Virus record (IMG/VR): IMGVR_UViG_2545824709_000009
Strand: one strand, 5' to 3'
Origin: a virus
Lineage: Duplodnaviria > Heunggongvirae > Uroviricota > Caudoviricetes
Length of the DNA: 14,941 bases
The notes under the pieces were generated by a model that did no database searches, was not told where the DNA came from, and was given only the letters and a program-made list of their open reading frames with translations. Positions 3,135 to 14,941 of the stretch are shown piece after piece. Each line of letters starts with the position of its first letter. Position 1 is the first letter of the stretch. The translations under genes were made by a program, and so were the position numbers.

Positions 3135-3737
3135 ATGAGCTATTTTCTGCGCAAAAAATGGATGGTAAATTTGTCCGGGTCAGGAAAAATTTTATGGGCG
3201 CTAAACATGAAAAAAGATTCGTATCCTTATTTGATTTGCATGACAGTTTCAGGGCTGATCTTTATTTTCCTTTTCTTCTGGTGGCGGGCAGATATCTACA
3301 GGGTCACGTTTCTTAATCAGAGTATATCCCACTATTACATTCTGTTTAGCATGGGAATAGCTTTTCTGTTATCTCTGTTTTGGGTTAAGAAGGGGATAGT
3401 AAAACAAAGAGGCTGGAAGAGTCTGTCAGCATACCTTAAGGTTTATGCAGGGATGTGCATATTTGCAGGATTTTTTCTGATTATACCCCTTACGACACTA
3501 ACTTATTTTTTGCCTGGAGAGACATCGTCTTATGTTGCACCGTATCGGTATACTTCCGGTAGTTCAAAAAGTTGTTCTGGAGCTGAGGTGGATGACCCCG
3601 ATCTACATGAGAATATTCGCATTTGCTATCCGTATGGCAATTATGAGTACGATAATATTATCTATGTTGAAAAGAAAATTAATATATTAGGTGCGGTAGT
3701 GACATATGCACAGACCGCGCGTGATGATACTGAATGA
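3135..3737 (+). CDS. Small polytopic membrane protein of unknown family; candidate lysogen-expressed accessory (exclusion/defence) gene
   Basis: Uninterrupted 200-codon ORF on the strand opposite the early-left operon. It sits in an AT-rich segment (about 38% GC by eye against about 50% in flanking phage genes). Three hydrophobic helices (LICMTVSGLIFIFLFFWW, YYILFSMGIAFLLSLFWV, GMCIFAGFFLIIPLTTL) with a very basic loop KKGIVKQRGWK, then an approximately 70-aa hydrophilic C-terminal tail containing two Cys. Start uncertain: in-frame ATGs at 3135, 3162 and 3207, none with a strong SD. Confidence 0.7.
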   Translation: MSYFLRKKWMVNLSGSGKILWALNMKKDSYPYLICMTVSGLIFIFLFFWWRADIYRVTFLNQSISHYYILFSMGIAFLLSLFWVKKGIVKQRGWKSLSAYLKVYAGMCIFAGFFLIIPLTTLTYFLPGETSSYVAPYRYTSGSSKSCSGAEVDDPDLHENIRICYPYGNYEYDNIIYVEKKINILGAVVTYAQTARDDTE

Positions 3738-3771: not shown

Positions 3772-3809
3772 TCGAGGTAATATAATTTACCTCGACTCGT
3801 TTGTTCTGG
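3772..3809 (+). terminator. Putative hairpin terminator downstream of the membrane-protein gene
   Basis: Perfect 9-bp stem TCGAGGTAA / TTACCTCGA with 6-nt loop TATAAT, followed by a moderately T-rich tract (ctcgtttgttctgg). Confidence 0.4.
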
Positions 3810-3947
3810 TATTAATATTTCGCTTTACGACCGATTTTTATCTGATGATATCATGCGGTTTTCATATACTGACTTACTGTCTTTTCTCCGTTAGCGATTT
3901 TCTCCTGCTCAGCGATGATTTTATCTTTGGCTTCTAGTTAATTTCGC

Positions 3948-4169
3948 TCACTTCGAACCTCTCTGTTTACTGATAAGCTCCAGATCCTCCTGGCAACTTG
4001 CACAAGTCCGACAACCCTGAACGACCAGGCGTCTTCGTTCATCTATCGGATCGCCACACTCACAACAATGAGTGGCAGATATAGCCTGGTGGTTCAGGCG
4101 GCGCATTTTTATTGCTGTGTTGCGCTGTAATTCTTCAATTTCTGATGCTGAATCAATGATGTCTGCCAT
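3948..4169 (-). CDS. TraR/DksA-family C4 zinc-finger protein (lambda orf73-like)
   Basis: 73-aa ORF with CxxC-x17-CxxC (CCECGDPIDERRRLVVQGCRTCASCQ), the pattern of TraR-like RNA-polymerase secondary-channel binders. Position matches lambda orf73 as I recall it. Confidence 0.8.
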   Translation of the reverse strand: MADIIDSASEIEELQRNTAIKMRRLNHQAISATHCCECGDPIDERRRLVVQGCRTCASCQEDLELISKQRGSK

Positions 4170-4223
4170 CTTCCATTAATCCCTGAATTGTTGGTTAATA
4201 CGCTTGAGGGTGAATGCGAATAA

Positions 4224-4246
4224 TAAAAAAGGAGCCTGTAGCTCCC
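4224..4246 (-). terminator. Putative intrinsic terminator in the early-left operon
   Basis: Minus-strand reading gives GGAGC-tacag-GCTCC followed by TTTTTTATT (plus strand aaaaaaggagcctgtagctcc). Confidence 0.5.
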
Positions 4247-4267
4247 TGATGATTTTGCTTTTCATGT

Positions 4268-4579
4268 TCATCGTTCCTTAAAGACGCCGTTTAACATGCC
4301 GATTGCCAGGCTTAAATGAGTCGGTGTGAATCCCATCAGCGTTACCGTTTCGCGGTGCTTCTTCAGTACGCTACGGCAAATGTCATCGACGTTTTTATCC
4401 GGAAACTGCTGTCTGGCTTTTTTGATTTCAGAATTAGCCTGACGGGCAATGCTGCGAAGGGCGTTTTCCTGCTGAGGTGTCATTGAACAAGTCCCATGTC
4501 GGCAAGCATAAGCACACAGAATATGAAGCCCGCTGCCAGAAAAATGCATTCCGTGGTTGTCATACCTGGTCTCTCTCAT
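4268..4579 (-). CDS. Hypothetical early-left protein (lambda orf61-like region, 103 codons here)
   Basis: Minus-strand ORF co-directional with exo and overlapping the stop of the upstream orf63-like ORF. The 5' part aligns positionally with lambda orf61, but the ORF runs longer than 61 codons; the true start could be internal (MTPQQENAL...). Confidence 0.55.
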   Translation of the reverse strand: MRETRYDNHGMHFSGSGLHILCAYACRHGTCSMTPQQENALRSIARQANSEIKKARQQFPDKNVDDICRSVLKKHRETVTLMGFTPTHLSLAIGMLNGVFKER

Positions 4580-4751
4580 CTGCTTCTGCTTTCGCCACCA
4601 TCATTTCCAGCTTTTGTGAAAGGGATGCGGCTAACGTATGAAATTCTTCGTCTGTTTCTACTGGTATTGGCACAAACCTGACTCCAATTTGAGCGAGGCT
4701 ATGTGCCATCTCGATACTCGTTCTTAACTCAACGGGAGATGCTTTGTGCAT
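4560..4751 (-). CDS. Hypothetical protein, lambda orf63-like
   Basis: 63-aa ORF with the same length and relative position to exo as lambda orf63. Confidence 0.75.
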   Translation of the reverse strand: MHKASPVELRTSIEMAHSLAQIGVRFVPIPVETDEEFHTLAASLSQKLEMMVAKAEADERDQV

Positions 4752-4906
4752 ACAGCTCCCCGTTTATTATTTATCTCCTCAGCCAGCCGCTGTGCTTTCA
4801 GGGGATTTCGGATAACAGAAAGGCCGGGAAATACCCAGCCTCGCTTCGTAACGGAGTAGACGAAAGTGATCGTGCCTACGCGGATATTATCGTGAGGATG
4901 TTTCAT
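4724..4906 (-). CDS. Hypothetical protein, lambda orf60a-like
   Basis: 60-aa ORF ([10 protein letters not shown]...) whose start overlaps the exo stop. The six-frame track begins two codons upstream (MAM, at 4912); the ATG at 4906 gives the lambda-like length. Confidence 0.7.
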
Positions 4907-5583
4907 CGCCATTGCTCCCCAAATACAAAACCAATTTCAGCCAGTGCCTCGTCCATTTTTTCGATGAACTCCGGCACCATCTCGTCAAAACTCGCCATGT
5001 AATTTTCATCCCGCTCAACCACGACATAATGCAGGCCTTCACGCTTCATTCGTGGGTCATAGTTGGCAAAGTACCAGGCATCTTTTCGCGTCACCCACAT
5101 GCTGTACTGCACCTGGGCCATGTAAGCTGACTTTATGGCCTCGAAACCACCGAGCCGGAATTTCATGAAATCCCGGGAGGTAAACGGGCATTTCAGTTCA
5201 AGGCCGTTGCCGTCACTGCATAAACCATCGGGAGAGCAGGCGGTGCGCATACTTTCGTCGCGATAGATGATCGGGGATTCAGTAACATTCACGCCGGAAG
5301 TAAACTCAAACAGGGCTCTGGCGTCGTTCTCGTACTGTTTTCCCCAGGCCAGCGCCTTAGCATTAACTTCCGGAGCCACACCGGTGCAAACCTCAGCCAG
5401 CAGGGTGTGGAAGTAGGACATTTTCATGTCAGGCCACTTCTTTCCTGAGCGGGGCTTTGCTATCACGTTGTGAACTTCTGAAGCGGTGATGACGCCGAGC
5501 CGTAATTTGTGCCATGCATCATCCCCCTGTTCGACAGCTCTCACGTCGATCCCGGTACGCTGCAGGATAATGTCCGGTGTCAT
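4903..5583 (-). CDS. exo: Lambda exonuclease (Red-alpha, YqaJ-type 5'-3' exonuclease)
   Basis: 226-aa [43 protein letters not shown]...FGEQWR, recognised as near-identical to lambda Exo; overlaps the bet stop. Confidence 0.97.
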
Positions 5584-6365
5584 GCTGCCACCTTCTGCTC
5601 AGTGGCTTTCTGTTTCAGGAATCCAAGAGCTTTCACTGCTTCGGCCTGTGTCAGTTCTGACGATGCGCGAATGTCGCGGCGAAATATCTGGGAACAGAGC
5701 GGCAATAAGTCGTCATCCCATGTTTTATCCAGGGCGATCAGCAGAGTGTTAATCTCCTGCATGGTTTCATCGTTAACCGGAGTGATGTCGCGTTCCGGCT
5801 GACGTTCTGCAGTGTATGCAGTATTTTCGACAATGCGCTCGGCTTCATCCTTGTCATAGATACCAGCAAATCCGAAGGCCAGACGGGCACACTGAATCAT
5901 GGCTTTATGCCGTAACATCCGTTTGGGATGCGACTGCCACGGCCCCGTAATTTCTCTGCCTTCGCGAGTTTTGAATGGTTCGCGGCGGCATTCATCCATC
6001 CATTCGGTAACGCAGATCGGATGATTACGGTCCTTGCGGTAAATCCGGCATGTACAGGATTCATTGTCCTGCTCAAAGTCCATGCCATCAAACTGCTGGT
6101 TTTCATTGATGATGCGGGACCAGCCATCAACGCCCACCACCGGAACGATGCCGTTCTGCTTATCAGGGAAGGCGTAAATTTCTTTCGTCCACGGATTAAG
6201 GCCGTACTGGTTGGCGACGATCAACAATGCGATGAACTGCGCATCGCTGGCATCACCTTTAAATGCCGTCTGGCGAAGAGTGGTGATCAGTTCCTGTGGG
6301 TCGACAGAATCCATGCCGACACGTTCAGCCAGCTTCCCTGCCAGCGTTGCGAGTGCTGTACTCAT
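5580..6365 (-). CDS. bet: Bet (Red-beta single-strand annealing protein, RecT-like)
   Basis: 261-aa [62 protein letters not shown]..., recognised as lambda Bet. Confidence 0.97.
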
Positions 6366-6370
6366 CCGTT

Positions 6371-6667
6371 TTATACCTCTGAATCAATATCAACCTGGTG
6401 GCGGGCAATAGTTTCAACCATGTACCGTATGTGTTCTGCCATGCGTTCCTGAAACTCAACATCGTCATCAAACGCACGGGTAATGGCTTTTTTGCTGGCC
6501 CCGTGGCGTTGCAAATGATCGATGCATAGCGATTCAAACAGGTGCTGGGGCAGGCCTTTTTCCATGTCGTCTGCCAGTTCTGCCTCTTTCTCTTCACGGG
6601 CGATCTGCTGGTAGTGACGCGCCCAGCTCTGAGCCTCAAGACGATCCTGAATGTAATAAGCGTTCAT
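6371..6667 (-). CDS. gam: Gam (RecBCD inhibitor), short form
   Basis: 98-aa [63 protein letters not shown]..., recognised as lambda GamS with a CAGGAG RBS. The upstream in-frame sequence resembles the N-terminal extension of long Gam only loosely. Confidence 0.95.
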
Positions 6668-6743
6668 GGCTGAACTCCTGAAAATGGCTGTGAAAATATC
6701 GCCCGCGAAATGCCAGGCTGATTAGGAAAACAGGAAAGGGGGG

Positions 6744-7034
6744 TTAGTGATTCAGGCCGTTACCGCGTCCGTCGAGAAAAACTTCCACGAGCAAATCACG
6801 GGTATAAGTGCGCTCGATGCCGCGATGCAGATAAAGCCGTCCGCGTAAATTAGCTGATGCAGTCCAGGTACCATCTTTGTGTTTGACCAGCATTCCTGGC
6901 ATGACCGCACCTCGATTAACGGTCTGCGTTCCGTAATGTTGATGAACCATAAAAACTCCTGCCCGTAAGCTGGGCTGCTGAACATATAAAGACTTCTGCG
7001 CGTATTCAGGCGGTGGATGGCCGCCGGTTGTCAT
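6744..7034 (-). CDS. Hypothetical early-left protein at the kil/cIII position (first ORF downstream of pL)
   Basis: 96-codon ORF from the track. An internal ATG at 6950 (MVHQHYGTQTVNRG...) is preceded by a strong AGGAG RBS and may be the real start, giving 68 aa. Its stop sits where lambda kil ends. No family recognised, and no arginine-rich motif of N type. Confidence 0.5.
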   Translation of the reverse strand: MTTGGHPPPEYAQKSLYVQQPSLRAGVFMVHQHYGTQTVNRGAVMPGMLVKHKDGTWTASANLRGRLYLHRGIERTYTRDLLVEVFLDGRGNGLNH

Positions 7035-7204
7035 AACTAAGCCGCCTCGTTGAAGCGACTAAGGTATGAAATGTTGAGTTAATTTCAGCTGGTCACACCG
7101 ACGTTCACGCGTCCGTTTCACCCCTCGCACTCCCCGAAGCCTGCTGAAATTCAAACTGCGGATCTAAGCGGTCATCGCAACGGTGAATCAGGTAGTTGCC
7201 GTAT

Positions 7205-7290
7205 CGTTGTGTTGTTGCGATGAACTTATTTAAAACTATAGTTGTTTTATCGTCAACAACAAAAGTTGTTTTATTGGTTGTTTTAGATAT
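7205..7290 (-). promoter_or_regulatory. Putative OL operators and pL promoter
   Basis: Palindrome GTTGTTttatcgtcAACAAC (7241-7260) overlapping a -35 TTGACG (minus strand, 7251-7256), with a TTTTAAAT -10-like element about 16-17 bp downstream (7228-7235). Further GTTGTTTTA half-sites at 7265 and 7277. The module is nearly a copy of the OR/pR module at 8277-8312. Confidence 0.5.
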
Positions 7291-7396
7291 AACTGGTTGT
7301 ATTTAGGATGGATTTATTTTGTGACTTGAATCGCATAGCGATAACTGAAGCGAGGTTATGGTGGTTTTTTTAACGGTGTGTGTGATGAGGGGAGGG

Positions 7397-7424
7397 CAAA
7401 AGAAAACCCGGCACGGTGACCGGG
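7397..7424 (-). terminator. Putative intrinsic terminator downstream of cI
   Basis: Minus-strand reading gives CCCGG-tcaccgtg-CCGGG followed by TTTTCTTTTG, about 120 nt past the cI stop. Confidence 0.5.
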
Positions 7425-7545
7425 ATTCTTACGCCGTTAGGTAAAGATATTATTGCGGTGGCTTAATATTACTACCTAGAGCAAAGATAGGAATTAGTTC
7501 TTTACTGAATGAGCACAATGCCCAGTTGATAATTTTTAATTGGTA

Positions 7546-8235
7546 CTACCCATGCTTCCTATATGTCTGCGGCATGCTCCCAATAACCTTACCGAAGATG
7601 AACACCCGGTTCATCTCGTCTTTCTCGATCGGGTCCCACGGTGAGTAGCTTTTGTTATCAGAGATGACCAGCAGCTTATTCTTCATCATTTGCAGGCGCT
7701 TTACATGGGCTGTGTCGTCGTACAGAAACGCATAGATACCATCACCGTCGAAAGATTTAACTGTGATATCAACGAACAGCAGATCACCTGGTTCGATCGT
7801 TCCTGACATGCTGTCACCACGCACGTTAATGATGCGGATATTTTCCGCCTTCCTACCATCGAACATGTGACGAGCATCGTCAAACGAGTACTCAACCGAG
7901 CGTAGAACTTCTACAAACTCACGGTTGATGACTCCCGGCCCAGCACTGACTTCTATATCAAGAACGTCAATCTTGAAGTATTTGGAATGGCTGACAGTTG
8001 ATTGTATTGGTTGCACTGTACTGTCTGACATATTTCCAACGCCAGAAGATAACCATTCTGCGCGCACACCCAAAGCGTTCGCGATCTCCACGATTTTAGT
8101 TGTTTGATTAGCTTTCCCTGTTTCGATTTTCTGAATAGCAGCCTGGCTAACCCCGACCAAATCCCCAAGCGCCTTTTGTGTAAGGCCTCGCGCTAATCTG
8201 GCTTCTTTAAGTCTTTCTGAGAGTGTTGTTTTCAT
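7546..8235 (-). CDS. cI: Prophage repressor CI (N-terminal HTH, C-terminal S24 LexA-like autopeptidase domain)
   Basis: ORF with start chosen at MKTTLSERLKEARLARGLTQKALGDLVGVSQAAIQKIETGK (HTH, XRE-type); C-terminal domain carries the GDSM serine motif and a downstream Lys (AHVKRL). The track's upstream extension (to 8301) runs through the operator region and is unlikely. Divergent from cro across an operator region. Confidence 0.9.
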   Translation of the reverse strand: MKTTLSERLKEARLARGLTQKALGDLVGVSQAAIQKIETGKANQTTKIVEIANALGVRAEWLSSGVGNMSDSTVQPIQSTVSHSKYFKIDVLDIEVSAGPGVINREFVEVLRSVEYSFDDARHMFDGRKAENIRIINVRGDSMSGTIEPGDLLFVDITVKSFDGDGIYAFLYDDTAHVKRLQMMKNKLLVISDNKSYSPWDPIEKDEMNRVFIFGKVIGSMPQTYRKHG

Positions 8236-8339
8236 AGTCCAAATGTACAACCAAGGTTTTATTCCATCAAACGAAAATGGTTGTTGACTAAAAACAACCA
8301 TAGTTTTAATCTTGATTCAAATTAACCACGGAGGTTGTT
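8236..8339. promoter_or_regulatory. OR operator region with divergent pRM/pR promoters
   Basis: 25-bp palindrome ATGGTTGTTgactaaaAACAACCAT (8277-8301) containing -35 TTGACT (8284-8289), with a TTTTAAT-like -10 about 16 bp downstream. Extra half-sites ACAACC (about 8243) and GGTTGTT (8333-8339). Lies between divergent cI and cro. Confidence 0.6.
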
Positions 8340-8570
8340 ATGAACCCAGCTATCAAAACAGCGATCAATATCGTTGGTTCACAAAAGAAACTGGGCGCTG
8401 CTTGCGAAGTTTCACAGCAGGCCGTCTATAAGTGGCTTCACAACAAAGCAAAGGTATCCCCTGAACATGTCGGCAGCATTGTTACGGCTACTGGTGGAGT
8501 AGTGAAGGCATACCAGATTCGCCCGGATCTTCCGAAGTTGTTTCCACACACCGAAAAGAACGCAGCTTAA
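8340..8570 (+). CDS. cro: Cro-like HTH regulator
   Basis: 76-aa ORF directly right of OR and divergent from cI; small HTH-like protein (…QKKLGAACEVSQQAVYKWLHNK…). Confidence 0.8.
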   Translation: MNPAIKTAINIVGSQKKLGAACEVSQQAVYKWLHNKAKVSPEHVGSIVTATGGVVKAYQIRPDLPKLFPHTEKNAA

Positions 8571-8582
8571 ATTTCCATTTCA

Positions 8583-8595
8583 CGCTCTTTAACAA
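8583..8595 (+). promoter_or_regulatory. boxA-like element (nutR-type) in the pR transcript
   Basis: CGCTCTTTAACAA, a 12/13 match to the boxA consensus as I recall it (TGCTCTTTAACAA), 13 nt after the cro stop. No convincing boxB hairpin follows. Confidence 0.45.
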
Positions 8596-8639
8596 TAAGC
8601 AATCAACTTAACAGTCAATTCAAACTAAAGGAGTCAATT

Positions 8640-9179
8640 ATGCAACCACTTACATACCAACAGACTAGCGGATTTAGCCCGACTGCGGTGATAAATCGTT
8701 CTCAAACAAAACAGGTGCCAGGCCACGAAAAAATCCGTGATGCCGTCCGCGCCTGGTCGGCTGTAGATAATCAGGATGTCGTTGCCACACTCATTGTGAA
8801 TGAGTATCGGGAGCAGGGCGGCGGCACCATCGATTTCCCTGATGATGTCAGCCGTGCACGCCAGAAGCTGTTCCGCTTCCTCGATAACAAATTCGATTCT
8901 GAAAAATACCGAAATAATGTGCGTGAACTGACCCCGGCAATTCTGGCGGTACTACCGCTGGAATATCGCGGTTACCTGGTTGAGCAGGATAGCTTCATGG
9001 CTAGGTTGGCTGAAATGGAAAAGGAACTCAGTGAGGCAAAACAGGCTGTCATTCTCAACGCACCACGCCACCAGAAACTGAAGGAAATTAGTGAAGGTAT
9101 TGTGTCGATGTTTCGTGTGGACCCAGATCTGGCTGGTCCATTGATGGCGATGGTTACTACCATGCTGGGGGCGATATGA
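8640..9179 (+). CDS. CII-position regulatory protein, probably YdaT family (the CII analogue of Rac-type immunity regions)
   Basis: 179-aa ORF with a good RBS (aaggag) between cro and O. Motifs NEYREQGGGTIDFPDD and LTPAILAVLPLEYRGYL resemble my recollection of YdaT-like proteins. Not similar to lambda CII. Confidence 0.6.
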   Translation: MQPLTYQQTSGFSPTAVINRSQTKQVPGHEKIRDAVRAWSAVDNQDVVATLIVNEYREQGGGTIDFPDDVSRARQKLFRFLDNKFDSEKYRNNVRELTPAILAVLPLEYRGYLVEQDSFMARLAEMEKELSEAKQAVILNAPRHQKLKEISEGIVSMFRVDPDLAGPLMAMVTTMLGAI

Positions 9180-9265
9180 CAGGTTCAGAAATGGCGAAAG
9201 CCGGTCTGCTGGAACAGAACCGACTTTCAGGTGCAAATCGTAACACACTCATTGCGGGAGGAATT

Positions 9266-10195
9266 ATGGCAAACACTGCTGAGATATTCAATTTTCCAGT
9301 GCCGGATGCGGCACAAAAGGAGCCGCGCGTGGCAGATCTCGATGATGGTTATACGCGCATTGCAAATGAGTTGCTGGAAGCTGTGATGCTGGCCGGATTA
9401 ACACAGCACCAGCTTCTGGTCTTCCTGGCTGTCATGCGCAAAACATATGGCTTTAATAAAAAACTGGATTGGGTGAGCAACGAGCAACTTTCCGAGTTGA
9501 CCGGGATATTGCCGCACAAGTGTTCTGCTGCAAAAAGTGTTCTGGTAAAGCGTGGGATTTTTATTCAGAGTGGGCGGAATATCGGCATTAATAATGTGGT
9601 CAGTGAATGGTCAACATTACCCGAATCAGGTAAGAAAAATAAAGTTTACCTGAAAGAGGTAAATTTACCTGAATCAGGTAAGAAAAGTTTACCCAAATCA
9701 GGTAAAGGCGTTTACCCGAATCAGGTAAACACAAAAGACAAACTAACAAAAGACAATATAAAACCTTTTTCGTCCGAGAATTCTGGCGAATCCTCTGACC
9801 AGCCAGAAAACGACTTTCCTTTGGAGAAACTGGATGCTGCAATTCAGAGCGGCAGCAAGTGGGGGACAGCAGAAGACCTGACCGCCGCAGAGTGGATGTT
9901 TAACATGGTGAAGACCATCGCGCCCTCAGCCAGAAAACCGAATTTTGCAGGGTGGGCTAACGATATCCGCCTGATGCGTGAACGTGACGGACGTAACCAC
10001 CGCGACATGTGCGTGCTGTTCCGCTGGGCATGCCAGGACAACTTCTGGTCCGGTAACGTGCTGAGTCCGGCCAAACTCCGCGACAAGTGGACCCAACTCG
10101 AAATCAACCGTAACAAGCAACAGGCTGGCGTGACAACCGGAAAATCAAAACTCGACCTGACAAACACTGACTGGATTTACGGGGTGGATTTATGA
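9266..10195 (+). CDS. O: Replication initiator O (lambda O type, with divergent N-terminal iteron-binding domain)
   Basis: Start chosen at the ATG after GGAGG (MANTAEIFNFPVPD...), aligning with the lambda O N-terminus; the track's longer ORF starts at 9176. The C-terminal half (from ...SSENSGESSDQPENDFPLEKLDAAIQSG...) is recognised as near-identical to lambda O. Contains the iterons. Confidence 0.9.
   Translation: MANTAEIFNFPVPDAAQKEPRVADLDDGYTRIANELLEAVMLAGLTQHQLLVFLAVMRKTYGFNKKLDWVSNEQLSELTGILPHKCSAAKSVLVKRGIFIQSGRNIGINNVVSEWSTLPESGKKNKVYLKEVNLPESGKKSLPKSGKGVYPNQVNTKDKLTKDNIKPFSSENSGESSDQPENDFPLEKLDAAIQSGSKWGTAEDLTAAEWMFNMVKTIAPSARKPNFAGWANDIRLMRERDGRNHRDMCVLFRWACQDNFWSGNVLSPAKLRDKWTQLEINRNKQQAGVTTGKSKLDLTNTDWIYGVDL
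9617..9770. repeat. ori: Replication origin: five ~19-bp palindromic iterons plus AT-rich region inside O
   Basis: TTACCCGAATCAGGTAA (9617), TTACCTGAAAGAGGTAA (9646, variant), TTACCTGAATCAGGTAA (9665), TTACCCAAATCAGGTAA (9689), TTACCCGAATCAGGTAA (9713), followed by acaaaagacaaactaacaaaagacaatataaaacc. Same architecture as lambda ori but different iteron sequence. Confidence 0.8.
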
Positions 10196-10893
10196 AAAAC
10201 ATCGCCGCACAGATGGTTAACTTTGACCGTGAGCAGATGCGCCGGATCGCCAACAACATGCCGGAACAGTACGACGAAAAGCCGCAGGTACAGCAGGTAG
10301 CGCAGATCATCAACGGTGTGTTCAGCCAGTTACTGGCAACTTTCCCGGCGAGCCTGGCTAACCGTGACCAGAATGAACTGAACGAAATCCGCCGCCAGTG
10401 GGTTCTGGCTTTCTGGGAAAACGGGATCACCACAATGGAACAGGTTAACGCTGGAATGCGCGTAGCCCGTCGGCAGAATCGACCATTCCTGCCATCACCC
10501 GGGCAGTTTGTCGCCTGGTGCCGGGAAGAAGCATCCGTTACCGCCGGGCTGCCAAACGCCAGCGAGCTGGTTGATATGGTTTACGAGTATTGCCGGAAGC
10601 GCGGGCTGTATCCGGATGCAGAGTCTTATCCGTGGAAATCAAACGCGCACTACTGGCTGGTTACCAACCTGTATCAGAACATGCGGGCCAATGCGTTGAC
10701 TGACGCGGAATTACGGCGCAAGGCTGCCGATGAACTGTCCTGTATGACCGCACGAATTAACCGTGGTGAGGCTATACCTGAACCAGTAAAACAACTTCCT
10801 GTCATGGGCGGTAGACCTCTAAATCGTGCACAGGCTCTGGCGAAGATCGCAGAAATCAAAGCTAAGTTTGGGCTGAAAGGAGCAAGGGTATGA
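10192..10893 (+). CDS. P: Replication protein P (DnaB helicase loader)
   Basis: 233-aa ORF MKNIAAQMVNFDREQMRRIANNMPEQYDEKPQVQQVAQIINGVF..., recognised as near-identical to lambda P; start overlaps the O stop. Confidence 0.97.
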   Translation: MKNIAAQMVNFDREQMRRIANNMPEQYDEKPQVQQVAQIINGVFSQLLATFPASLANRDQNELNEIRRQWVLAFWENGITTMEQVNAGMRVARRQNRPFLPSPGQFVAWCREEASVTAGLPNASELVDMVYEYCRKRGLYPDAESYPWKSNAHYWLVTNLYQNMRANALTDAELRRKAADELSCMTARINRGEAIPEPVKQLPVMGGRPLNRAQALAKIAEIKAKFGLKGARV

Positions 10894-11192
10894 CGGGCAA
10901 AGAGGCAATTATTCATTACCTGGGGACTCATAAGAAATTCTGTGCGCAGGACGTTGCCGCGGTAACAGGCGCAACGGTAACCAGCATAAATCAGGCTGCG
11001 GCTAAAATGGCGCGGGCAGGAATCCTGGTCGTTGATGGTAAGGTCTGGCGAACGGTGTATTATCGGTTCGCTACCAGAGAAGAATGGGAAGGAAAGGTGA
11101 GCACGAATTTGATTTTTAAGGAGTGTCGCCAGAGTGCCGCGATGAAACGGGTATTGAGGGTATATAAAAGAACATCAATGGGTACACAATGA
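10890..11192 (+). CDS. ren: Ren (Rex exclusion-relief protein homologue)
   Basis: 100-aa ORF MTGKEAIIHYLGTHKKFCAQDVAAVTGATVTSINQAAAKMARAG..., recognised as lambda/DLP12 Ren-like; overlaps the P stop. Confidence 0.9.
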   Translation: MTGKEAIIHYLGTHKKFCAQDVAAVTGATVTSINQAAAKMARAGILVVDGKVWRTVYYRFATREEWEGKVSTNLIFKECRQSAAMKRVLRVYKRTSMGTQ

Positions 11193-11259
11193 TGAAACAG
11201 GTGAGTTGAGTTCAAACTGTAGTACAATTCTCTCCAGTTTGAACAGGAAAGAATATGCT

Positions 11260-11592
11260 ATGAATCCTTATATTTATCTTGGTGGTGCAATACTTGCAGA
11301 GGTCATTGGTACAACCTTAATGAAGTTTTCAGAAGGTTTTACACGGTTATGGCCATCTGTTGGTACAATTATTTGTTATTGTGCATCATTCTGGTTATTA
11401 GCTCAGACGCTGGCTTATATTCCTACAGGGATTGCTTATGCTATCTGGTCAGGAGTCGGTATTGTCCTGATTAGCTTACTATCATGGGGATTTTTCGGCC
11501 AACGGTTGGACCTGCCAGCCATTATAGGCATGATGTTGATTTGTGCCGGTGTGTTGGTTATTAATTTATTGTCACGAAGCACACCACATTAA
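11260..11592 (+). CDS. emrE: SMR-family multidrug/quaternary-ammonium efflux transporter EmrE
   Basis: 110-aa protein from MNPYIYLGGAILAEVIGTTLMKFSEGFTRLWPSVGTIICYCASFWLLAQTL... with an AGGAAA RBS, recognised as EmrE. The track's upstream extension (from 11206) lacks support. Confidence 0.95.
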   Translation: MNPYIYLGGAILAEVIGTTLMKFSEGFTRLWPSVGTIICYCASFWLLAQTLAYIPTGIAYAIWSGVGIVLISLLSWGFFGQRLDLPAIIGMMLICAGVLVINLLSRSTPH

Positions 11593-11624
11593 AAATAATT
11601 TGTTTTTAAACGACTAAAATATGG

Positions 11625-11660
11625 AGGCTCGTATATTTATATGGGCCTCGTTTTATGCTT
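11625..11660 (+). terminator. Putative intrinsic terminator after emrE
   Basis: GAGGCTC ... GGGCCTC stem (one G-U pair, large loop) followed by GTTTTATGCTTTTT. Confidence 0.35.
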
Positions 11661-11847
11661 TTTGTTAATGTCTTTAGTTTTTATTCATTCTTTTGTGCTT
11701 TCAAGATTATGGTGTAAGAAAATTGCAATACGATTATTGTTGTATATTCAAGATAATGTGACCTTAATTGTCTTTTTAAATAAAAATTAAACAAAAATCA
11801 TATCTCACCACTAAGGTTTATAAAAGCATACTTTAGCAGGTGTCACC

Positions 11848-13374
11848 ATGAAAAAAGCCATAGCATATATGCGATTTTCATCACCAGGTCAGATGTCTGG
11901 TGATTCATTAAACCGCCAGAGAAGGCTTATTACTGAATGGCTAAAGGTAAATAGTGATTATTACCTTGATACCGTAACGTATGAAGATTTGGGGTTAAGC
12001 GCATTCAATGGAAAGCATGCACAATCAGGAGCTTTTTCGGAATTTTTAGATGCTATAGAACATGGTTATATATTGCCAGGGACTACATTGTTAGTTGAAA
12101 GTCTGGACAGACTTTCAAGAGAAAAAGTCGGTGAAGCGATTGAGCGTCTGAAATTGATTTTGAATCACGGTATTGATGTTATAACTCTTTGCGATAATAC
12201 AGTCTATAATATTGACTCATTGAATGAGCCATATTCATTAATAAAAGCCATACTTATAGCACAAAGGGCAAATGAAGAAAGCGAGATAAAGTCAAGTCGG
12301 GTTAAATTATCATGGAAGAAAAAACGGCAGGATGCACTGGAGTCAGGCACGATTATGACGGCGTCTTGTCCGAGATGGCTCTCATTGGATGACAAAAGAA
12401 CGGCTTTTGTTCCAGACCCCGACAGGGTGAAAACTATTGAGCTAATTTTTAAACTCAGGATGGAAAGGCGCTCATTGAATGCAATAGCCAAGTATTTAAA
12501 TGATCATGCTGTAAAGAATTTCTCAGGAAAAGAAAGTGCATGGGGACCTTCTGTAATTGAAAAATTATTAGCGAATAAAGCTCTGATAGGTATATGCGTA
12601 CCTTCATATCGTGCAAGAGGTAAAGGAATAAGTGAAATCGCTGGCTATTATCCCAGAGTCATATCAGATGATTTGTTTTACGCTGTGCAGGAAATTCGGT
12701 TGGCACCTTTTGGTATTAGCAATAGTAGCAAAAATCCTATGTTGATAAATCTACTTCGAACAGTTATGAAGTGCGAGGCTTGTGGTAATACCATGATTGT
12801 TCATGCGGTATCTGGAAGTTTGCATGGCTATTATGTTTGTCCGATGAGAAGACTGCATCGATGTGACAGGCCATCAATAAAGAGAGATTTGGTTGATTAT
12901 AATATCATTAATGAGTTGCTTTTTAATTGTAGTAAAATCCAACCAGTTGAAAACAAGAAAGATGCTAATGAAACTTTAGAGTTGAAAATTATTGAGCTCC
13001 AGATGAAAATTAATAATTTAATTGCTGCATTATCTGTTGCGCCTGAAGTTACCGCTATAGCAGAAAAAATCAGAGTATTAGATAAGGAATTACGAAGGGC
13101 TTCTGTATCATTAAAAACTTTGAAGAGTAAAGCGGTGAGTTCACTTGGTGATTTTCATGCTATTGACTTAACCAGTAAAAATGGGCGAGAGCTATGTCGT
13201 ACACTTGCCTATAAAACATTCGAAAAAATCATAATCAATACAGATAATAAAACCTGTGATATCTATTTTATGAATGGCATTGTTTTTAAACACTATCCTT
13301 TAATGAAAACAATATCTGCCCAGCAGGCGATAAGTACTCTCAAATATATGGTTGATGGTGAGGTTTATTTTTGA
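11848..13374 (+). CDS. ybcK: Large serine recombinase (YbcK-like; resolvase catalytic domain, recombinase domain, zinc ribbon, coiled coil)
   Basis: 508-aa ORF. N-terminal AYMRFSSPGQ motif (catalytic Ser), Cys cluster CEACGN...YYVCPM...C, and a C-terminal predicted coiled coil (LELKIIELQMKINNLIAALS). Very AT-rich. Length and gene order ren-emrE-ybcK match the DLP12 arrangement from memory. Confidence 0.85.
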   Translation: MKKAIAYMRFSSPGQMSGDSLNRQRRLITEWLKVNSDYYLDTVTYEDLGLSAFNGKHAQSGAFSEFLDAIEHGYILPGTTLLVESLDRLSREKVGEAIERLKLILNHGIDVITLCDNTVYNIDSLNEPYSLIKAILIAQRANEESEIKSSRVKLSWKKKRQDALESGTIMTASCPRWLSLDDKRTAFVPDPDRVKTIELIFKLRMERRSLNAIAKYLNDHAVKNFSGKESAWGPSVIEKLLANKALIGICVPSYRARGKGISEIAGYYPRVISDDLFYAVQEIRLAPFGISNSSKNPMLINLLRTVMKCEACGNTMIVHAVSGSLHGYYVCPMRRLHRCDRPSIKRDLVDYNIINELLFNCSKIQPVENKKDANETLELKIIELQMKINNLIAALSVAPEVTAIAEKIRVLDKELRRASVSLKTLKSKAVSSLGDFHAIDLTSKNGRELCRTLAYKTFEKIIINTDNKTCDIYFMNGIVFKHYPLMKTISAQQAISTLKYMVDGEVYF

Positions 13375-13485
13375 GTAATAATCACTTTTTCAACCGTGCT
13401 ATAGTAAGAAAGTTAGGTAAGTACAATAAAATTATCTATCCTGAACGAAGCGTCCTGAGCTATGGTTTTACTATAGGGACTGCCA

Positions 13486-13809
13486 ATGGATGCTGGCGTT
13501 CTCGTTCTAGCAGTTCAACAATCCCCAATCACAAAACAATTCACTGATAACGAACTTTGCACACTCGCCTGGTTATGGCGAGCAGGGAATGTGATGTTAA
13601 TTACCTACCAGAACGTTACTCCTCTTCTTCAGGTTGCGGAGCATCGTGAAGCTGGTCGCTTCACTTCTATCGAGCAAGAATATCCCCAGATACTCAACAG
13701 AGCGCGAGCAATCCTCGTCCGAGAAACGGCACATGTAAAACTTCAGCCGTGGCAGGATGATAAGTGGAGTCGAGTATTGCCGCATTTACCTCAGAATCTG
13801 TTTCAATAA
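13486..13809 (+). CDS. Hypothetical protein (107 aa), unknown function
   Basis: ORF with mid-range GC and a weak RBS; no recognisable motifs. Could be a gene fragment. Confidence 0.35.
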   Translation: MDAGVLVLAVQQSPITKQFTDNELCTLAWLWRAGNVMLITYQNVTPLLQVAEHREAGRFTSIEQEYPQILNRARAILVRETAHVKLQPWQDDKWSRVLPHLPQNLFQ

Positions 13810-13827
13810 AGGCGCTAGTTAGTAAGG

Positions 13828-13853
13828 CTTCCGTCATTCTGCGATGACGGAAG
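13828..13853. other. Strong hairpin (10-bp perfect stem, 6-nt loop) without a U-tract
   Basis: CTTCCGTCAT-tctgcg-ATGACGGAAG, between the 107-aa ORF and the HNH-like gene. Confidence 0.4.
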
Positions 13854-13983
13854 TGCGGGCTGCGTACGGGAGAGCAATTGCATGAATAATATAAATATTC
13901 CGCTCACTCCATATAGCGATTTCTGATACAAACTTATCTATTGTGGTAAAATTATAGAAACAAACTTATAGCGTACTAACCAT

Positions 13984-14679
13984 ATGGACAATATTAATAA
14001 ACACGGGCTCTCAAGAAGAATACCTGAGACAATAAAACGTCAGATAAGGCAAAGGTGCGGCTTTGGCTGTGTAATTTGTGGATTTGGATTTTATGATTAT
14101 GAGCATTTTAAACCTGACTTCGTTGATGCCAAAGTACATGATCCGAATGGAATGACACTTCTTTGCTCCCAATGCAATCAAAAAAGAGCTCGTGGTAGAC
14201 TTTCAGCACAGACAGTGGAAATAGCTGACAGAAATCCCAAGTGCTTACAGGCTGGTTTTGCAAATGAAATGTTTGATTTTCATAATGAGCCTATAACAGT
14301 AAAATTTGCAGGAGTGACGTTTCATAACTGTCAAAATTTGATTGTAGTCAACGAACAACCCATTCTTTCTGTGAAACCTTCACCCATACCACATGGACCG
14401 ATGCTTTTATCAGGAATTTTCTGTAATTCTATTGGTAAGGAGACTTTACTGATAGATGAAAATGAATGGAAAGCTAAATCAGACAATTGGGATGTGGAGT
14501 GTACCGGCCCGCGTATAACAATACGACGTGGGCCAGGAGAGTTTGCCCTCGTTCTAAAAATGGAACCTCCAACAGGATTGATTGTTGAGCGTCTTGATAT
14601 GTTGTATGAAGGGGTCAGGATGAAAGGAGATAAAGATCTGCTGGAAGTTTTGAACCGCCCCGGGAATCCTGGAGACTAA
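13984..14679 (+). CDS. HNH-motif nuclease-like protein, 3' end probably truncated by IS insertion (last ~9 codons and stop come from IS sequence)
   Basis: N-terminal CVIC-x8-H-x13-N-x5-CSQC arrangement (residues ~29-64), typical of a zinc-bound HNH/HNN nuclease finger, plus an unrecognised ~150-aa C-terminal region. AT-rich. The ORF reads into the IS left inverted repeat that starts at 14651. Confidence 0.55.
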
Positions 14680-14941
14680 ACTTCCTGAGAAAGAGGTAAA
14701 CAGGATGACTAAAAATACTCGTTTTTCCCCCGAAGTCCGTCAACGGGCAGTCCGTATGGTTCTGGAAAGTCAGAGCGAATATGACTCACAATGGGCGACA
14801 ATTTGTTCCATTGCTCCAAAGATTGGCTGTACGCCGGAGACTCTGCGTGTCTGGGTTCGCCAGCATGAGCGGGATACCGGGGGCGGTGATGGAGGGCTCA
14901 CCACCGCTGAACGTCAGCGTCTGAAAGAGCTGGAACGTGAA
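14651..14941 (+). mobile_element. IS3-family insertion sequence, IS629-like, left end (runs off the window)
   Basis: Left terminal repeat TGAACCGCCCCGGGAATCCTGGAGACTAAACTTCC followed by an orfA beginning [23 protein letters not shown], recognised from memory as IS629/IS1203-type. Confidence 0.8.
14705..14941 (+). CDS. IS629-like transposase OrfA (HTH subunit), partial at window end
   Basis: [82 protein letters not shown]..., no stop within the window. Confidence 0.85.

Follow-up and report, generated by a model that had tools for sequence, protein, structure and literature searches.

The early-left region of a DLP12-like lambdoid prophage without N: a possible joint loss of N and its first terminator

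Introduction

Processive antitermination has its textbook model in the N/nut system of phage lambda, and put of phage HK022 is the one well-studied alternative that works without N. Lambda relies on N to get past the terminators of its pL operon, and in lambda nin5 and other N-independent derivatives independence is gained by removing terminators, not by replacing the antiterminator. HK022 and HK639 are N-less lambdoid phages with a structured RNA, put, directly downstream of pL. Here we analyse 14,941 nucleotides of a tailed-phage genome (IMG/VR record IMGVR_UViG_2545824709_000009; this whole stretch is called the window below), and in particular its early-left region between gam and cI (6668-7545), in which N is missing. 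The reading that we prefer, with a probability of roughly 55%, assigns this early-left region to an intact lambdoid phage of the DLP12-like kind (Bievrevirus), from which N and the terminator that it had to pass were lost together.

The absence of N from lambdoid phages is a recognised yet unsolved pattern: a 2025 survey records such phages and simply guesses that they use put (PMC12315714), and our literature search on Bievrevirus, GevA/GevT and N-less lambdoids found nothing bearing on early-left control without N. An assay for put action, via the zinc-binding domain of the RNA polymerase beta′ subunit and factor-independent read-through, has been described (PMC9378689). The lineage studied here, which includes the cultured phages PhiR34_1, Turner, 4A7 and Perceval with the same N-less region, appears to have dropped N with the first terminator while keeping further lambda terminators, which raises the question of how xis, int and Q are reached. 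Upstream of kil and of other delayed-early genes, the analysis also reveals an RNA element that is unannotated and supported by covariation; it is a candidate new cis-regulatory RNA.

Results and Discussion

A Compact gam-cI Interval Without N, nut or put

The window opens with ybhC (1-1284), behind which a lambdoid prophage occupies the lambda attachment site. Positions 1331-2962 (attachment core, int and xis) are 98.7% identical to lambda 27724-29355, positions 3936-6750 (orf61 through exo, bet and gam) are 97.8% identical to lambda 30380-33193, and positions 9729-11107 are 93.7% identical to the 3′ part of lambda O, P and ren. Lambda homology stops at 6750, and 6751-9728 contains no lambda sequence. 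To the right of the O-P-ren block lie ren, emrE and a ybcK-type recombinase gene, which is the DLP12 gene set. The gam-cI interval measures 878 bp, against 3,994 bp for its lambda counterpart (33233-37226) with nine genes (kil, cIII, ea10, ral, orf28, sieB, N, rexB and rexA), in agreement with the first-pass annotation of this DNA, which had set less than 0.9 kb against about 4 kb. Its contents are likewise those listed there, namely one open reading frame (ORF) of 96 codons, or 68 from an internal ATG, a leader, the OL/pL module and a terminator behind cI. The locus thus has the same placement with respect to cI/OL and the red genes as the pL-nutL-N-tL1 region of lambda, its int-xis and orf61-exo-bet-gam genes are 98% identical to those of lambda, and its 5′ leader locally resembles the N leader at an equal distance from pL; it differs in lacking N, a left boxA/boxB, cIII, ral, sieB and rex, in having a kil gene of another family, and in occupying 0.9 kb instead of 4 kb.

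That N is missing had been noticed before, and the searches bear this out. Scans against PHROG detected no N or Nun family among the candidate small ORFs of the window. Lambda N, phi80 N, HK022 Nun and HK225_041 gave no match in tblastn searches of the window and of the early regions of PhiR34_1 and 4A7 (best E 0.68, out of context), and no N is annotated in PhiR34_1 (1-20 kb) or 4A7 (28-49 kb) across their early, replication and lysis regions. A scan of the window for arginine-rich stretches, of the kind that the first-pass annotation had proposed for small ORFs, picked up nothing but Xis, Int, stretches that are out of frame and one that lies within the leader; of these only the last, in the kil frame, is of interest, and no ORF in the window is N-like or carries an arginine-rich motif. 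There is no nutL either: the pL leader contains no boxA within three mismatches, and where it aligns with lambda boxA and boxB its positions are not conserved, reading CGTTGCGA and CCGCTTAGATCCGC without any hairpin.

The searches for put were equally negative. A covariance model (R1) built from HK022 putL, HK022 putR and HK639 putL, whose training members score 69-97 bits, found nothing at E ≤ 10 in 7035-7225 on the minus strand, and its best matches in the window reach at most 12.9 bits and all fall in coding DNA. No second, putR-like copy of the leader is present as an inverted repeat in 6900-14941, and an nhmmer search with a profile of the 5′ leader detects nothing beyond the leader itself in the window, PhiR34_1 (1-20 kb) and 4A7. 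In Rfam the window has no match at the gathering score, and a permissive search of 6850-7350 gave only chance-level matches (E ≥ 0.55, far below gathering). The window phage is therefore without protein-based N antitermination, N being truly absent throughout the lineage, and the comparison shows that N/nut and put are both missing from a lambdoid prophage lineage that is among the commonest in E. coli. A kil gene close behind pL with no annotated N is also found in SEN34, Mulock, phiES15 and ST101-KPC2phi6.1. We also observed that ST101-KPC2phi6.1 (Klebsiella; L093, 2540-2700) and Mulock (L095) share the pL/OL type and the first ~30 nucleotides of the transcript with the window; their leader has only about 75 nt and runs straight into small ORFs, and no N is annotated in them.

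Over 6600-7600 the closest complete phages are PhiR34_1 (99.5%) and Turner (98.9%), and the whole gam-kil-leader-pL-cI module is about 99-100% identical between these two isolates and the window; the relatives 4A7 and Perceval belong to the genus Bievrevirus (DLP12-like). This bears on the proposal, raised in the first-pass annotation, that the prophage is cryptic, meaning that the N region was simply deleted and the early-left operon no longer functions. DLP12 itself is cryptic in K-12, and so compact an interval does resemble a deletion. However, the identical architecture occurs in the complete isolated phages PhiR34_1, Turner, IdasGreatGrand, 4A7, Perceval, 1W, 3W and D2, with replication, Q, lysis and structural genes intact, and plaque-forming and induced phages are among the carriers of the module (PhiR34_1, Turner, 4A7 and Perceval). 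We give a cryptic remnant practically no chance.

A Covarying Hairpin Downstream of a Missing Terminator

The best-supported structure in the interval is a hairpin/mini-ORF element in the stretch 7071-6947 (minus strand), and not the 9-bp long-range stem that had been singled out earlier in the leader. Its first part, extended hairpin C (7032-7068, minus strand), has an invariant outer stem CAUA/UAUG, which includes the ATG at 7034, and an inner stem (7060-7055 with 7045-7040, up to 9 bp here) whose sequence differs between phages; the loop UUCAACGAG ends in an invariant GAG. All six inner pairs have changed on both sides (6/6), 99.2% of the alignment cells remain paired, and the covariation score was reached by none of 500 shuffles, with slid controls far lower. 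The RNAalifold consensus agrees with this structure, and the single-sequence z-score is -3.76. Behind hairpin C lies a near-invariant box of 26 nt, AUGACAACCGGCGGCCAUCCACCGCC, containing a second hairpin, GGCGG-CCAUCCA-CCGCC (7009-7025, minus strand). Across 21 sequences from several genera the box changes hardly or not at all, and it shows no synonymous variation, which implies that the constraint acts on the nucleotides. It is followed by a GAAGUCUU block kept in different reading frames, a small GC hairpin, a Shine-Dalgarno (SD) sequence and the next gene. A pairing between the hairpin C loop and the GAAGUCUU block was considered and dropped, as our inspection showed no correlated variation.

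The 3′ element is common to HK225, HK639 and phi80 (nhmmer E 3e-20, 1e-12 and 6e-11, respectively) and occurs in 17 further prophages of Enterobacter, Citrobacter, Scandinavium and Huaxiibacter (L097-L113); the copies in the named phages lie at 1989-2129 in phi80 (L011), 1725-1842 in HK639 (L010) and 2363-2457 in HK225 (L009). Among 5,426 complete E. coli genomes, 2,318 carry it without annotation; it belongs to no Rfam family, and we found no paper giving its sequence or its peptide. On its 3′ side it usually has varied delayed-early genes. On its 5′ side, among the 19 copies outside the window family with a known upstream flank (from phi80, HK225, HK639, Enterobacter, Citrobacter, Scandinavium and Huaxiibacter), nearly all have a GC hairpin with a T-run that directly abuts the element. 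In phi80 this hairpin is the annotated tL1A behind N, and in HK639 the element follows the annotated terminators downstream of putL, hairpin C itself being labelled a terminator in that phage. At the terminator position the window retains only the tail "TTTCATACC", and the terminator hairpin, N and nutL are gone. The joint loss of N and tL1 would be the simplest history to account for this arrangement, as judged from the sequence comparison.

The early-left region of phi80 has a Kil of the same family (41% identity) and the same hairpin-C/mini-ORF element between N/tL1A and the downstream genes, but it keeps nutL, N and the tL1A hairpin, all missing in the window, where the element is in addition fused in frame to kil. 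HK639 combines the element with a KilR-type gene as well. Since hairpin C follows the terminator in phi80 and HK639, it cannot serve there to pass that terminator.

The ORF Behind pL Is a Predicted kil Gene

The ORF at 6744-7034 (minus strand; 96 codons, or 68 from the internal ATG at 6950, which is preceded by AGGAG) is the sole pL-strand ORF of the interval with a family match, an overlapping frame of 77 codons (6752-6985, minus strand) having none in PHROG. The 96-codon ORF matches PHROG 294 (Kil, septation inhibitor) with E 1.2e-38. The 68-aa product aligns from Met1 to Met1 with Rac KilR (36% identity, E 9e-13) and is 41% identical to phi80 Kil (E 5e-16); the window gene therefore shows full-length homology (~70 aa) with the KilR/phi80-Kil family of PHROG 294, whereas its product has no similarity to lambda Kil. 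A 207-bp Kil gene is annotated in 4A7, HK225, SEN34 and others, and the position of kil in the window, directly upstream of gam-bet-exo, has early-left parallels in SEN34, Mulock, phiES15, HK225 and phi80. By homology, then, the ORF represents a known kind of protein, a predicted Kil-type FtsZ inhibitor of KilR/phi80-Kil type, whose gene occupies 6744-6950 on the minus strand (68 aa plus stop; ATG 6950-6948; SD AGGAG 6960-6956). For Rac KilR, inhibition of cell division on expression is reported (PMC12482147).

The 96-codon length arises from the mini-ORF. Its body (6951-7034, minus strand; ATG 7034-7032, starting MTTGGHPPP) runs in frame into kil in the window family. In HK225, phi80 and HK639, with which it was aligned, it is separate, has about 20 codons and stops before the next gene; a difference of 17 nt in the window family puts it in frame with kil. 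A GAAGTCT block within this stretch is conserved across different reading frames, and by our count its variable sites (6951-7034) show no excess of third positions. Public records annotate kil at 68, 77 (in the wrong frame), 93, 128 or 139 aa, an inconsistency explained by the leader being open in the kil frame in most relatives: in most family members this frame is open from about 7163, giving an annotated Kil of 128-139 aa.

The first-pass annotation had left the ORF as an unknown protein and a possible non-canonical early regulator, in the 96-aa form or, as one could add from the relatives, in a form of 128-139 aa with an arginine-rich upstream part. That such a part exists within the leader is clear, as RLRGVRGVKRTRERR is read in the kil frame at 7151-7098, this frame is open in most family members, and six of nine common polymorphisms are synonymous in it by our count. 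As coding sequence, however, the upstream part fails on several grounds: the window and 15 of 60 haplotypes have a TAG codon (7061-7059) that breaks the frame, 5 nt are inserted in four haplotypes and 1-nt insertions or deletions occur in others, there is no usable start codon or SD sequence, PHROG gives no match, and the codon-position counts of variable sites are flat (12:8:10). On account of this TAG, the insertions and deletions, the missing start signal and the flat counts we treat the stretch as non-coding. In addition, the homology to KilR begins at the Met encoded at 6950, and the mini-ORF is a separate frame in HK225, phi80 and HK639. With the matches to PHROG 294, KilR and phi80 Kil in hand, a regulatory protein encoded by this ORF has become very improbable.

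Among known regions, that of Rac kilR is similar to the window in its KilR homologue, in immunity genes of the YdaS/YdaT type and in having no annotated N; it differs in that the sequence upstream of kilR (KilS, sieB, ydaF, ydaG) is unrelated to the window leader and in that kil is the first gene behind pL in the window. KilS is a small RNA (sRNA) annotated by RefSeq just upstream of kilR in the Rac prophage of K-12 (L115, 2406-2503), and a KilS-like sequence also precedes kil in Cronobacter phage phiES15 (L096, about 2410-2470). As a homologue of the window leader KilS was rejected, the two sharing no sequence similarity.

The 5′ Leader and the Possibility of a cis-Acting RNA

The promoter pL and the OL operators (7228-7290, minus strand) were read by eye, with a -35 hexamer TTGACG at 7256-7251, a spacer of 17 nt and a -10 hexamer TTAAAT at 7233-7228; a consensus promoter scan did not call this pL. 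The assignment is supported by OL/pL being an inverted copy of OR/pR: 7230-7248 and 8291-8309 are 95% complementary over 19 nt, and the inverted similarity spans OR/pR at 8266-8309. From the hexamers and from a module boundary at 7221/7220, we infer that the pL transcript starts near A7221. At this boundary the same leader is joined to other immunity regions, at least three different ones, in other phages, and a third variant joins it at 7187. The leader then measures 187 nt to the ATG at 7034 and 271 nt to the ATG at 6950.

The family-specific part of the leader (7072-7221, minus strand) can be drawn with a 5′-terminal stem (7221-7214 with 7181-7174) and a three-way junction closed by 7151-7143 and 7089-7081. 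The closing helix is the long-range stem reported in the first-pass annotation, in which AATTTCAGC (7081-7089) pairs with GCTGAAATT; the nine base pairs are real, and the second arm lies at 7143-7151 and not, as had been given, at 7144-7152. It encloses the GACG...CGTC hairpin at 7113-7100. The minimum free energy has a z-score of -0.53 for the whole leader, with 61 of 200 shuffles folding at least as well, and of -1.55 for the three-way junction alone; about 0.07 perfect 9-bp inverted repeats are expected in 190 nt by our estimate. No compensatory (double) change in the stem or the GACG hairpin occurs in 48 distinct family sequences, a comparison of low power as these are 94-100% identical, and the RNAalifold consensus drops the long-range stem. 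Stem and hairpin together are barely more than chance.

Of 5,426 complete E. coli genomes, 2,221 (~41%) contain the 5′ leader, always unannotated. It is confined to the E. coli family: as an exact 21-mer it is found in none of 185,579 species-representative genomes, and a blastn search for divergent homologues ("distant" setting) against phages returned the window family only. It evolves about as fast as the third codon positions of kil (29 of 113 nt variable against 18 of 68, our count), apart from an invariant block of 25 nt at 7108-7084. The signature of Rho utilisation (C>G in 78-nt windows) reaches at most 1.5 in the leader, below the window's 90th percentile of 1.8. A local alignment pairs leader positions 79-133 with lambda 82-134, just 3′ of boxB and at nearly the same distance from pL, and its score of 14.5 (shuffles 9.4 ± 1.4) was reached by 7 of 1000 shuffles. 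From this comparison, 7221-7072 is probably a decayed lambda-type N leader without nutL.

The first-pass annotation had also entertained a cis-acting RNA. In that case the pL leader (its first 150 nt, the hairpin-C element or both) would make RNA polymerase resistant to terminators, as an analogue of HK022 put from an unrelated family. Like putL, the leader begins at the transcription start, and it moves as one module together with several immunity regions; lambda terminators are kept downstream even though N is gone; the invariant block of 25 nt stands out in an otherwise variable leader; and the family is very successful and inducible. The leader differs from put, however, in being unmatched by the put model, in having no copy in the pR operon and in showing no covariation; its folding energy is no better than that of shuffled sequences, its substitution density is like that of synonymous sites, and hairpin C is also carried, placed after the terminator, by phages with N (phi80) or put (HK639). 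Nothing in the analysis positively supports a cis-acting RNA of this kind, which we consider distinctly unlikely. Still more doubtful is the combined proposition that 7068-7009 represents an undescribed class of cis-acting RNA for lambdoid delayed-early genes and that this element or the relic leader confers factor-independent read-through in the N-less DLP12-like family; if it held, such read-through would be a second antitermination solution without N, unrelated to put.

boxA on the Right and the Possibility of Host-Factor Antitermination

The boxA noticed earlier on the right side is confirmed at 8584-8595 (plus strand). It reads GCTCTTTAACAA, is of the rrn type, is the sole boxA match in the window and is identical at 12 of 12 positions to the leader boxA of E. 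coli K-12 rrnH. It lies 13 nt past the stop codon of the cro-like gene, on the transcribed strand and about 270 nt downstream of pR, and the 45 nt ahead of the cII-like gene contain no boxB-like hairpin. By analogy with the rrn operons, NusB/NusE could be loaded at this site and oppose Rho on the stretch from cro to the cII-like gene. We also note that some relatives have a 12-nt insertion just downstream of boxA.

A broader role for it would be that Nus factors, recruited through an rrn-type boxA and acting without N, protect the early transcripts. In its favour, a perfect rrnH boxA stands at the nutR position of the right operon, with no boxB behind it. The site is single, however, and on the right; none lies within three mismatches at a meaningful position in the pL operon. 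It is found only with the window's immunity type and is missing from sister phages with other immunity regions, 4A7 having a 30-nt junction with a small hairpin in its place, so that it cannot be the family-wide answer. Complexes of the rrn type act mainly on Rho-dependent termination, and not on intrinsic terminators; those seen on the left are intrinsic and thus outside their main action. Protection of the early transcripts by host factors is, in our view, unlikely.

Early Transcription After the Proposed Joint Loss of N and tL1

Under the preferred reading, the loss of N together with the terminator it had to pass, the loss would turn kil, gam, bet and exo into immediate products of pL. On derepression, pL would start near A7221. 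The first 150 nt would be a relic of the N leader in which the boxA and boxB positions no longer act as nut, and the 5′-terminal stem would most likely do no more than stabilise the mRNA. The transcript would then enter the cis element at 7068-7009, where the hairpin pairs the ATG of the mini-ORF and is followed by the near-invariant box, a structure borne out by covariation. In relatives with N or put this element lies immediately 3′ of a tL1-type terminator; by comparison, the terminator hairpin, N and nutL are missing here, and RNA polymerase may thus run unmodified into kil, gam, bet and exo. In agreement with this, a terminator scan detected no terminator-like site from pL to kil. Kil (68 aa) would be made from the ATG at 6950 with its strong SD sequence, and the hairpin and mini-ORF probably tune the amount of this toxic protein. 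On the right, boxA after cro probably loads NusB/NusE, as established for rrn operons, so that pR transcripts would resist Rho into cII-O-P without N. The logic would be that of lambda nin5; the differences are that the window belongs to a natural lineage, that its left arm is concerned, and that only the first tier of terminators is gone, sites like tL2c and tL3 persisting.

This persistence weighs against the proposal. Terminator-like hairpins inherited from lambda continue down the pL operon at 6718-6701, 4842-4820, 4247-4229, 2962-2943, 2931-2912 and 2735-2716. The one between kil and gam (6701-6718, minus strand), a weak site in the terminator scan, lies inside the lambda-homologous block; it and the hairpin at 4842-4820 are presumably tL2c and tL3, going by the lambda map. 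If transcription were wholly without antitermination, little expression of xis and int would be expected from pL, yet the relatives can be induced. Other points count in the same direction: the start of pL transcription is placed from sequence; the match to the lambda leader, seen in a single pairwise alignment, is of modest strength (p about 0.007); structure is what speaks for a function of hairpin C, whose regulatory role is that of a candidate; and boxA, as described above, is missing from sister phages with other immunity regions.

Neighbouring Genes and Additional Observations

The interval is bounded by a lambda-type gam gene (6371-6667, minus strand; 98 aa; Pfam Gam, E 3.6e-65), which lies inside the lambda-like block 3936-6750, and by the cI repressor gene (7546-8301, minus strand; Pfam HTH_3 and Peptidase_S24). 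Behind cI the terminator scan detected a predicted intrinsic terminator (7407-7424, minus strand), CCCGGTCACCGTGCCGGG followed by TTTTCTTTTG. Beyond cI lie the cro-like gene of the YdaS family (8340-8570, plus strand; Pfam YdaS_toxin, E 4.1e-17, and P22_Cro) and the cII-like activator gene of the YdaT family (8640-9179, plus strand; Pfam YdaT_toxin, E 8.5e-30; PHROG 163, CII-like, E 3.9e-67).

In several relatives a two-gene cassette (moron) separates cI from its terminator, where lambda has rexAB and the window has no such cassette: PhiR47_2 (L002, 3831-5259), 4A7 (L005, 1879-3295) and Perceval (L006, 1741-3291). The cassettes are annotated as GevT/GevA toxin-antitoxin, as an ASCH-domain protein or as a membrane protein. 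Another moron-like unit is present in the window itself, where a gene for a membrane protein of 200 aa (3135-3737, plus strand), on the opposite strand and at the place of ea8.5/ea22 in lambda, is flanked by hairpins at 2912-2962 and 3772-3795, an arrangement that resembles a moron equipped with terminators of its own.

The window departs from PhiR34_1 past ybcK, where that phage has ybcL and ybcM. At this place the window has two plus-strand genes, which encode a 107-aa protein matching the C-terminal part of Ant anti-repressors (13486-13809) and a 231-aa HNH-like protein (13984-14679). A stretch of 17 nt in OL (7263-7279) is 94% complementary to 10781-10797 within the P gene, which may be due to chance. 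Finally, a cluster of inverted repeats with the unit TTTACCTGAATCAGGTAAA lies inside the O gene (9644-9730, plus strand) and presumably corresponds to the iterons of the replication origin.

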